From Heptranchias perlo (Eukaryota), in assembly GCF_035084215.1 (NCBI RefSeq), contig NC_090333.1:28272001-28336000 (forward strand): a DNA stretch of 64,000 nucleotides. Reading direction: 5' to 3'. Made by a program: the position numbers and the translations under genes. Positions 7,042 through 10,000 of the stretch are shown here, piece after piece (position 1 is the first letter of the stretch; the number at the start of each line of letters is the position of its first letter). Under the pieces are notes generated by a model. It was given only the letters and a program-made list of their open reading frames with translations, did not search any database and was not told where the DNA came from.

Positions 7042-10000
7042 GTACAGCTGTGCCAGAAAGCATCCTGTTTAAGTTGTAAAGCAGGCTGGGGCTGAGAGGC
7101 AAGGAGCTGCTGCAGTGCAGGGTTTTTTCGCTTTTACATCCCCGCCTAGAGGTTGAAAGTTTAATGGGTTCTGGTCAATTAGAGTACGACCCTTGCCCAT
7201 TTCTGAAATCTCTTTTTAATTTACTGAATTTCGCGTTTGTGGTTCGAGCGAGATGGTAGTTTACCTGTGAAGCAGAGGTTAAATGAGGAGGGGTTTTTTC
7301 CTCGAGGTCCATTTGTGATCTTGGCTTTCGCAGATCGTTTATGTATGTATAGTTTAGTGGTTCCCTTTTTAAAAGTAATGGGCACTAATGTTTTGAAATT
7401 GTTAAAATTGGATGTATTTTATGTTGGAGCCTACAGTCTCGGTGTCTTACTCTTGATATCCACATAGCACGCGTCTGCGATTTGTGTTTCTAAAATGACA
7501 TTTTTTTTTCTTTGTGAAAAACACAGACTGTACCTCAAGTACATTTTCTTGTAATTTAAACTTCCCCCCCATATTTTATCTCTATCTAACTACACAACTG
7601 ATTCCACTTTATGAAGTGGTTCAATTATTTAACCGCCTGGCTTATAAATGCGAGCTGGGTGTGAATGTAGGTTAACATTGGGATTTGTACGTTTAGCGGC
7701 GTTTGAGGAGGAGGAGGAGGGGGGGGGGAAACTAACCAAGTGAAACTTCTAATTAATTACCAACATTCAGAACTTCTGTTTTAGCTTTAATTAAACTTCC
7801 CCGGGGCTTTTTTTTTTCCATTATGGACAAATGCTGGTTTTAAGCTATAGGAAGATCCTGACGTTATGGACACGAGTGTATTGGGAGGGGCGGGGAGATG
7901 AAATAAGTGGCCAATGAAAAGTCAGTGATTCTCCAACACTGGGCTGGCTGGTTATGGGATGAGTGGAGATGATTTGAGATATAAGGCAGGCTACTTTCTC
8001 TCTCCATAGAGGATCAATCATTGTTCCTCTAACGGCAGGAATATTCTGAATCACATTACTAGGTTCTAGATGACCTCGCTTGCTTCCGTGTGAATGACAT
8101 TGGCAGGGAGTGGGAATTCTGTTCAGACTGACTTTTTAGGTATTGAATCTTTAAATATCCGTTTGAGGATAACACTGTTGGGAAACCGGCGCTGCAGTGT
8201 CCTATAACTGAGTTGCATCATCTCTCTCTCTCTCAAGCCACTTCGTACTGCCACGTGTCTGAATTCCTCCCGGTGGAAGCGGAAACCTCTTTCCGTCACT
8301 CTGCAGGAATGAAGGGGGAGCCCAAAATATTCCAGTGGGGAAAATATAGGACGTTTACTCATCGCTTCTCGCTAAGCTTAAATATAGACGGGCTACCTAA
8401 CAGTTTAAACGATTTCCCTTATCTAACCCGTTATACTTCATTGCATTCACCCTGAATTTGGCGATTTCTATCACATCTGTAAAGTCTTCTGTGCTGCTCA
8501 TGTATGATGTGGAGATGCCGGTGATGGACTGGGGTTGACAATTGTAAACAATTTTACAACACCAAGTTATAGTCCAGCAATTTTATTTTAAATTCACAAG
8601 CTTTCAGAGGCTTCCTCCTTCGTCAGGTGAACGATGTGAAATTAAATTTCCCCGGGAAGTTTAATTTCCCCGGGAAGTTTAATTTCACATCGTTCACCTG
8701 ACGAAGGAGGAAGCCTCCGAAAGCTTGTGAATTTAAAATAAAATTGCTGGACTATAACTTGGTGTTGTAAAATTGTTTACAACTGCTCATGTATAGCATT
8801 TGATTTTGGTGACGATATTGCTTTGTTTCAAAAGAACTCTTGAAAGATATATTCTGTAAATAGAAAATCAAAGTTTTCCCACTTTTTTTGAAATCCGGTC
8901 ACACGAAAGGGGGGGGGGGGTTATACAGGCTGTATTAGAAAATAAAAGTAAAACACTGCGGTTGCTGGAAATCTGAAACAAAAAAACTCAGCAAACGCTG
9001 GAGCCACTCAGCAAGTCTGGCAGTATCCGTGGAGAGAAGACGACAGTTGGCATTTCAGGTTTAAAACCTTTCCTCAAACTAGCTTTATACCTGAAACGAC
9101 AACTGCCTCGTGTTTTCTCGACACAGGTTTGCTATGTTGGCCATGGTAAACCGGTAGGCATAGCGTGTAAATAATTAGGTTAATGGAATGCGGTTAGTGG
9201 TGTCCTCCATATTGTTTCACTTGCGATTTTCAGAACTTGTGCACTTGAATGATTTGAAACCTCCTTGCTTGTGACCATAAGAGATAGGAATAGGCCATTT
9301 GGCCCTTCGAGCCTGCTCTGCCATTTAATGAGATCTTGGCTGACCTGTTTTTACCTCAACTCCACTTTCCTGCCTTTCCCCATTGTGGCGGTTGCATTGG
9401 TGTCAATGGGACTGTCTCACTTCTGGACAAAGAAAAAAAAACCTCCTGAAATGATGGCAGTGCTTACTACTTACCATATTGCATGAGCCTATTACCTGAT
9501 GCAAACTACATCTGTGCATTCATAGATTGGAAGAAATGCATAAGACATTGATGGCAACTAATATGCCACAAGGACATGTGTTATTGGACTTAATTTAGGC
9601 AGCAGCTCTCTGCTCTCCTTACTCTGTTAGATGTGCACCCAAATAATAAACATTGGGGAGTCAGTGTTATTGGGTTGTCCAAGTTGGACACTAAAGTTTA
9701 GATCAGTTTTTGACGTACTAGCTATTATACAGCAATACTTTGAAAATAGCAATTACAAGTGCACTTTTGTTGCACTTGGAAAAGTTTTATTATCTGTCCA
9801 AGAGATGTGGAGGGATTCTAACTGGTTGTATAAGGTTTTTTTTTTTGGGGGGGGGGGGGGGGGGGGGGGGAAAGAGAAGAGAGAAAGAGATTGGACTACT
9901 TACTCATTCTGCTTTTAGGATTGAAAATATTCTAATCGTAATTTACCCAAAAATAGCCATTTGTTTAAGTATTAACAGTTCATAGCCTTAAGATCTTTGC

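Follow-up and report, generated by a model that had tools for sequence, protein, structure and literature searches.

A short stretch in the first intron of a Polo-like kinase gene of Heptranchias perlo reads almost identically in both directions and carries an extra segment on one side, which raises the question of what kind of element leaves such a palindrome and how its two halves came to lie head to head. Here, we analysed the 64,000 nt of contig NC_090333.1 around this locus (positions 28,272,001 to 28,336,000 of assembly GCF_035084215.1), called the window below and numbered from its first letter. The small intronic palindrome is real, and it is a common jumping-gene scar made of two termini of the Penelope type placed head to head. 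The features on which the argument draws are the following:

7042..10311, + strand: first intron of the gene for the host's Polo-like kinase, between exon 1 (ATG at 6904, end at 7041) and exon 2 (10312-10419)
7789..7805, - strand: candidate donor of the loop filler in host intron DNA (16/17 nt match, 13 exact)
8494..8505, + strand: left target-site duplication (TSD), 12 nt, with its last 1-2 nt common to the element terminus, a possible priming microhomology
8506..8541, - strand: one-sided 'tail' of a Penelope-like element (PLE), 36 nt, pairing back onto the arm in the predicted RNA fold; the terminus is the same in the sister copy
8542..8646, - strand: arm 1, the 5′-truncated PLE terminus with the tail, antisense to the host gene
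8593..8631, - strand: minimal type-I hammerhead motif of arm 1, with a G-U pair in stem II from a CpG change
8647..8677, no strand: central loop or filler, a doubled quasi-palindromic 18-mer (8645-8662, 8663-8680), absent from the sister copy
8678..8782, + strand: arm 2, the inverted 5′-truncated copy without a tail, sense in the host pre-mRNA
8693..8731, + strand: the corresponding minimal type-I hammerhead in arm 2, identified from its motif and its fold
8783..8794, + strand: right TSD, 12 nt, an exact direct repeat
43164..43335, - strand: sister insertion, with the tail and a 94-nt arm, a 2-nt overlap at the centre and a 44-nt inverted arm

The anatomy of the insertion (8494-8794) agrees with what had been read from the letters alone. 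The two arms, each 105 nt long, differ at a single position (8606/8718); the direct repeat at the two ends, proposed to measure 11-12 bp, is exact over 12 nt; and the loop indeed consists of two identical 18-mers in tandem, starting at 8645 and 8663. Since 82 contigs in each of two DNA runs (X1 and X4) depart from the reference at the tail end into unrelated flanks, running loose before 8504, the final 1-2 nt of the left TSD are also the family's terminal letters, and the TSD is best given as 10-12 nt. The predicted extra segment is likewise confined to one side and extends 36 nt beyond the TSD (8506-8541), or 37-38 nt with the shared letters. As predicted, the element has no coding sequence, its longest stop-free frame spanning 42/44 codons. 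Its hairpin fold has a z of -31 against 100 shuffles, and its inverted repeat is the longest of the nine in the window (at least 25 nt, within 600 nt). At 8606, the left arm has T; because the right arm and the sister copy keep a C in CpG context at this site, the mismatch looks like CpG decay after the insertion.

One RNA contig in each of two RNA-type runs (X5 and X6) splices 7039 to 10310, so the element lies inside intron 1, as originally proposed, and exons 1 and 2 joined give an open kinase frame from the ATG at 6904. The gene name proposed with it, PLK3, finds less agreement in the protein matches, as the kinase exon slightly prefers PLK2 (92.9 bits versus 89.1 bits for PLK3), and the polo-box exon matches PLK2 best, with no PLK3 entry among the matches listed. 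By these matches, the gene is PLK2/3-like, sequence alone not splitting PLK2 from PLK3. Downstream of it lie a single-exon Tctex-1 family frame (28889-29647, - strand) and a BTB-domain exon (57572-57934, + strand). The name PLK3 rests on these Tctex-1 and BTB neighbours, which would fit PLK3 by human synteny.

The sister insertion has its own TSD of up to 14 nt (43151-43164 / 43335-43348), shares the terminus of the element, and is alike to the tail arm at 129 of 130 nt; its centre lacks any filler. Its tail arm ends at the equivalent of 8635, 9 nt past the hammerhead core, and its tail-less arm begins at the equivalent of 8682 (mirror position 8642), 16 nt past the core, and stops 1 nt short of the predicted hammerhead cut, at the hammerhead palindrome. 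Because each of the two arms holds letters that the other lacks, neither is a plain copy of the other.

The family to which both copies belong is seen in contigs from four of the eight sequencing runs of one sample, possibly the assembly's own; X1 and X4 are DNA runs, and X5 and X6 are of RNA type, though no run is on record as RNA. Across these runs, the summed depth is of the order of a million on the element versus about 2-28 on unique flanks (in X4, 1.3-2.8 million versus ~17-28 on unique flank bins), which is a sign of a high-copy repeat and gives no copy number, the X1/X4 ratios differing several-fold. The contigs contain 253 joints, and in every one of the 15 listed an arm meets an arm, each time at another position, and several carry 1-9 extra letters; their left and right labels are uninformative because the arms are symmetric. 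Thirteen of these 15 fall within -5 to +15 nt of the hammerhead core, a clustering that is partly built in, as the reference has no element sequence further upstream. Of the 15, the joint that most contigs contain (19 in X1 and 6 in X4) links 8641 to 8683, which makes the centre a perfect palindrome, and single joints reach depths of 45-890 versus 2-6 on the X1 flanks, so that many loci share one joint. The element thus belongs to a family of very high copy number in which head-to-head joints are numerous, and, since the sister copy has another centre and another outer end and the centres vary among the contig joints, the palindrome was probably built anew at each insertion. This speaks against the original prediction of a non-autonomous element, if that is taken to mean a palindromic unit that moves whole: the sister has another centre and a second arm of 44 nt, the 253 joints differ, and the shared ends and internal junction of a moving unit are not found in the two window copies, the genome-wide contig picture being mixed.

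At the locus itself, contigs cross the left junction between element and flank in X1 and X4 and the right junction in X1. They run unbroken across the left TSD in both DNA runs, the X4 contig differing at 7365, 7808 and 8444, and none of the 15 listed joints of the 253 skips the element as an empty allele would; there are hints, then, that both haplotypes carry the insertion. No contig piece among those listed covers the loop letters, which hence lack independent confirmation.

As to the nature of the element, a minimal type-I hammerhead motif is present in both arms. In arm 2, stem I pairs 8693-8697 with 8727-8731, the core starts at 8698 and includes an unpaired A, stem II pairs 8706-8710 with 8714-8718, stem III is a 4-nt palindrome, and the cut is predicted after 8726. 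Stems I and II are 100% paired in five aligned rows with one double change, a weak signal, as 46 of 500 shuffles equalled it. An Rfam search of the whole window at the gathering threshold gave 0 matches, and 23 sub-threshold matches at 8400-8900 were mostly to miRNA hairpin models, with no hammerhead among them. Relaxed hammerhead pattern scans returned two metagenome loci (L001 and L002), 0 viral and 0 prokaryote. Both have a related hammerhead terminus, alike at 39 of 46 nt, with the stems kept and one double change. The terminus lies downstream of a GIY-YIG-like frame in L002 (Atlas score 0.97; PHROG E 1e-4; no Pfam match) and beside an inverted reverse transcriptase (RT)-like piece in L001 (RVT_1 E 1.5e-5; 25.3 bits, below the cut-off of 29.6). 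These loci link the terminus type to PLEs; they are distant contigs with Pfam support below the cut-off, and they are not the autonomous partner of the element. In L001 (1-1050), the inverted RT fragment is joined to the PLE 3′ region, which makes it an example of PLE inversion in itself, and L002 has the same 3′ region plus the nuclease frame.

Canonical insertions of endonuclease-bearing (EN+) PLEs typically have an inverted 5′-truncated copy and a 30-40-nt tail at one end (PMC8557442, PMC3846280, PMC8969392), a tail length also given by PMC11167929. Here, 5′ truncation with an adjacent inverted copy characterizes both window copies and all 15 listed joints, the tail measures 36-38 nt with the same terminus in the sister and a common end at 8504, and the TSD is 12 nt, or 14 nt at most in the sister. 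Because a minimal hammerhead, an inverted truncated copy and a one-sided tail of 30-40 nt together form a PLE signature, the element is very probably the dead-on-arrival stump of an endonuclease-bearing Penelope-like retrotransposon. The insertion is a heavily 5′-truncated PLE end, and its architecture is an already published PLE pattern. The PLE origin, the young age and the TSD that had been predicted are supported.

EN+ PLE insertions share with ours the 5′ truncation, the head-to-head inverted copy, the tail, the short TSD and palindromes at the inverted junction (PMC8557442, PMC3846280); PMC3846280 describes a 31-bp tail, 8-10-bp duplications and the head-to-head layout as the most frequent one. 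Our element differs from them in that a terminus of about 105-140 nt is all that remains, with no ORF, in its TSD of 12-14 nt versus 8-10 nt in the rotifer PLE examples, and in a loop that looks host-derived. The minimal hammerheads of metazoan PLEs (PMC4209133) are alike in the core, the unpaired base before stem II, the G-C first pair, the 5-bp stem I and the palindromic stem III; their dual opposite-strand motifs lie about 100-700 bp apart, whereas the cores are 72 nt apart here. For fish, coelacanth and frog, the same source reports solo motifs in their thousands, and the part of it considered here names no cartilaginous fish among the hosts. In the Poseidon element of Anolis, PAc, the figures place the cut 85-92 nt from the start, compared to 94 nt from cut to tail end in our element (PMC11167929). 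Two starts bounding a stem-loop tail, cutting and extension of both strands and an uncleaved hammerhead RNA are further points of likeness, by description rather than by sequence, whereas no ORF starts at stem II here and the inverted junction is not treated in the part of that study considered here. Animal non-LTR retrozymes (bioRxiv 10.64898/2026.07.22.740005), reported there in one chondrichthyan, are also small, non-coding, hammerhead-bearing and PLE-derived; they are arranged head to tail, whereas the head-to-head arrangement of our element puts the ribozymes on opposite strands, with no dimer within one transcript. A search that covered part of the literature, mostly outside subscription journals, found neither mini-palindromes in cartilaginous fish nor a two-cDNA model.

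Three other identities were considered and rejected. A microRNA or endo-siRNA precursor, which would give defined small RNAs from the stem, seems unlikely, all Rfam miRNA matches being below the gathering threshold and mirroring the long hairpin. A MITE or foldback DNA transposon has terminal inverted repeats that reach both ends, and its ends are fixed; here, one side has the tail beyond the inverted repeat, and the second end differs between copies. A non-LTR retrozyme should consist of tandem hammerhead units arranged head to tail, and the units are on opposite strands in both window copies.

The window holds further repeats. Another family of repeats, again with a hammerhead-like core, has three matches versus 0 expected, at 6150-6174 (+), 50019-50043 (-) and 52600-52624 (+). 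A decayed relative with 22-nt inverted arms, also high-copy in contigs, is situated 150 nt away from the element, at about 8940-9110. A 107-nt, 98% inverted repeat (61599-61705 / 62064-62170) joins a LINE-like 3′ end to its own inverted piece, 358 nt apart. Older inverted repeats occupy 35723-36170 (80 nt, 86%) and 59347-59658 (53 nt, 75%, with a 14-nt direct repeat 298 nt apart), and a C-rich imperfect tandem repeat of ~1 kb is inserted beside a repeat element at 51500-52540.

The way in which tandem and inverted PLE structures form is called undefined in PMC8557442. For our insertion, the best fit, to which we assign a probability of roughly 0.58, is that two cDNAs were primed from both ends of the target and joined mid-element. 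A GIY-YIG endonuclease would cut both strands ~12 nt apart, and each 3′ end would prime reverse transcription at the 3′ region of the PLE RNA, one cDNA starting at the tail end and the other at an inner start that lies 36-38 nt inward of it. Both would halt ~15-20 nt past the uncleaved hammerhead, end-joining would unite their free ends mid-element, here with a patch for which host DNA or nascent RNA 700 nt upstream may have served as template and which would then have been doubled, and gap filling would yield the TSD. We favour double priming because the arms of the sister each hold letters missing in the other. In line with it, both 3′ ends of the element point outward onto the TSD, as those of two primed cDNAs would, and the tail-less arms have their outer ends at landmarks of the RNA, namely the tail boundary here and the position 1 nt before the predicted cut in the sister (n = 2, post hoc). 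The arm-to-arm links at varying positions in the listed joints, and the local match of the loop described below, also speak for it. Moreover, purified PLE protein from Anolis, predicted to be dimeric, cuts and extends both strands, has two RNA starts that bound the tail, and uses uncleaved hammerhead RNA (PMC11167929). On the other hand, a second start predicts a fixed tail-less end, and none is present at 8542 or 8782 among the loose ends listed; the sharing of single joints by many loci also counts against it.

The loop patch has a candidate donor 700 bp upstream, at 7789-7805, with a match p of about 0.0005-0.01 for a resemblance that was noticed first and tested after the fact. None of 119 further 1-kb tiles scored as high; among doubled 18-mers used as controls, 1 of 2000 shuffled and 16 of 1500 genomic ones did. 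This suggests that the loop is perhaps a locally templated patch from host DNA. Against a local patch in double priming stands, besides the post hoc nature of the match, the recurrence of 12 nt of the candidate donor at 7556. The same 12-mer is present at 7556-7567 and 7791-7802, 235 nt apart in intron 1, and these are the sole sites in the window with at least 11 exact loop letters.

The strongest competitor of double priming is a fold-back, which the original prediction had put forward in its simple form. A cDNA started from the tail would pass the hammerhead, snap back, copy itself and jump to the other target end, with the tip later trimmed or patched. Self-copying is the simplest account of arms that are identical except for one CpG change, the perfect-centre joint, commonest among those listed, is also expected from fold-back, and self-priming is the route that PMC3846280 prefers for structures of this kind. 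The loop unit has a quasi-hairpin form of its own, the outer ends of the second arm vary (56 nt past the cut here versus 1 nt before it in the sister), and the loose ends listed include no fixed tail-less end, all of which would suit self-priming as well. However, simple fold-back leaves the sister copy unexplained, as each of its arms has sequence absent from the other; an added trimming step would be needed, the reading does not explain why copying should halt where it does, at the boundary of the tail or the site of the ribozyme, and extension of both strands has been demonstrated in vitro (PMC11167929). We therefore regard it as unlikely, though still a serious contender.

Less probable again is a true non-autonomous family, in which a palindromic master is transcribed and retrotransposed whole, and cruciform cutting and repair later make the centres diverge. 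Single joints of great depth, indicating many loci with one centre, are what it expects, the filler implies that end-joining took place at the centre, and in mammalian cells nucleases attack inverted repeats that have no spacer, with center-break revision cited (PMC3300023). Nevertheless, the second arms of the two window copies have different outer ends, right at their own TSDs, which repair at the centre cannot produce, and shared centres would be expected by recurrence from many copies and a small junction window. An assembly or library fold-back artefact, for which the uncovered loop among the contig pieces listed and the single sample behind all runs might be held, is highly improbable in view of the exact 12-nt TSD, the tail on a single side, the CpG-type mismatch between the arms, the two flank junctions in contigs and the sister copy with its own TSD.

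Considering the host transcript, the original prediction that the pre-mRNA forms a double-stranded stem which masks the sense hammerhead holds in silico, where the stem reaches -197 kcal/mol (-131 kcal/mol for the DNA strand) and the pairing probability of ribozyme stem II is 0. Masking is probably inconsequential, because minimal PLE hammerheads are reported not to cleave as monomers (PMC4209133), the gene region has a single sense hammerhead motif of the element's family, and splicing of exon 1 to exon 2 is seen. The two RNA-type runs have zero A>G sites, in contigs that drop rare variants and at a place to which thousands of other copies map, so that this speaks neither for nor against editing, and zero locus-specific intronic RNA pieces over the element. 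The + strand of the element has no strong splice donor, and its AATAAA at 8737 lies in the stem and shows no sign of use. A hairpin within an intron that is spliced out, the insert is probably of no use to the host.

The single insertion, one of very many and situated in a spliced intron, matters little. What young and tiny copies with intact TSDs offer is that the two outer junctions and the centre can all be read within 300 bp, and the asymmetry of the sister's arms together with the locally matching filler provides scalable tests of how PLE inversions form. Tentatively, and with somewhat less than even confidence, we propose that the mini-palindromes are fossils of two-ended insertion, in which a PLE dimer would prime both target ends at RNA landmarks (the tail end, the inner start and the ribozyme cut) and host end-joining would stitch the products, sometimes with a patch from the neighbourhood. 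If this is true, the genome is a very large natural library of junctions, and counting them could settle the origin of PLE inversions. If many near-perfect hairpins of this kind occupy introns, they would form a large pool of potential double-stranded RNA and cruciform DNA.
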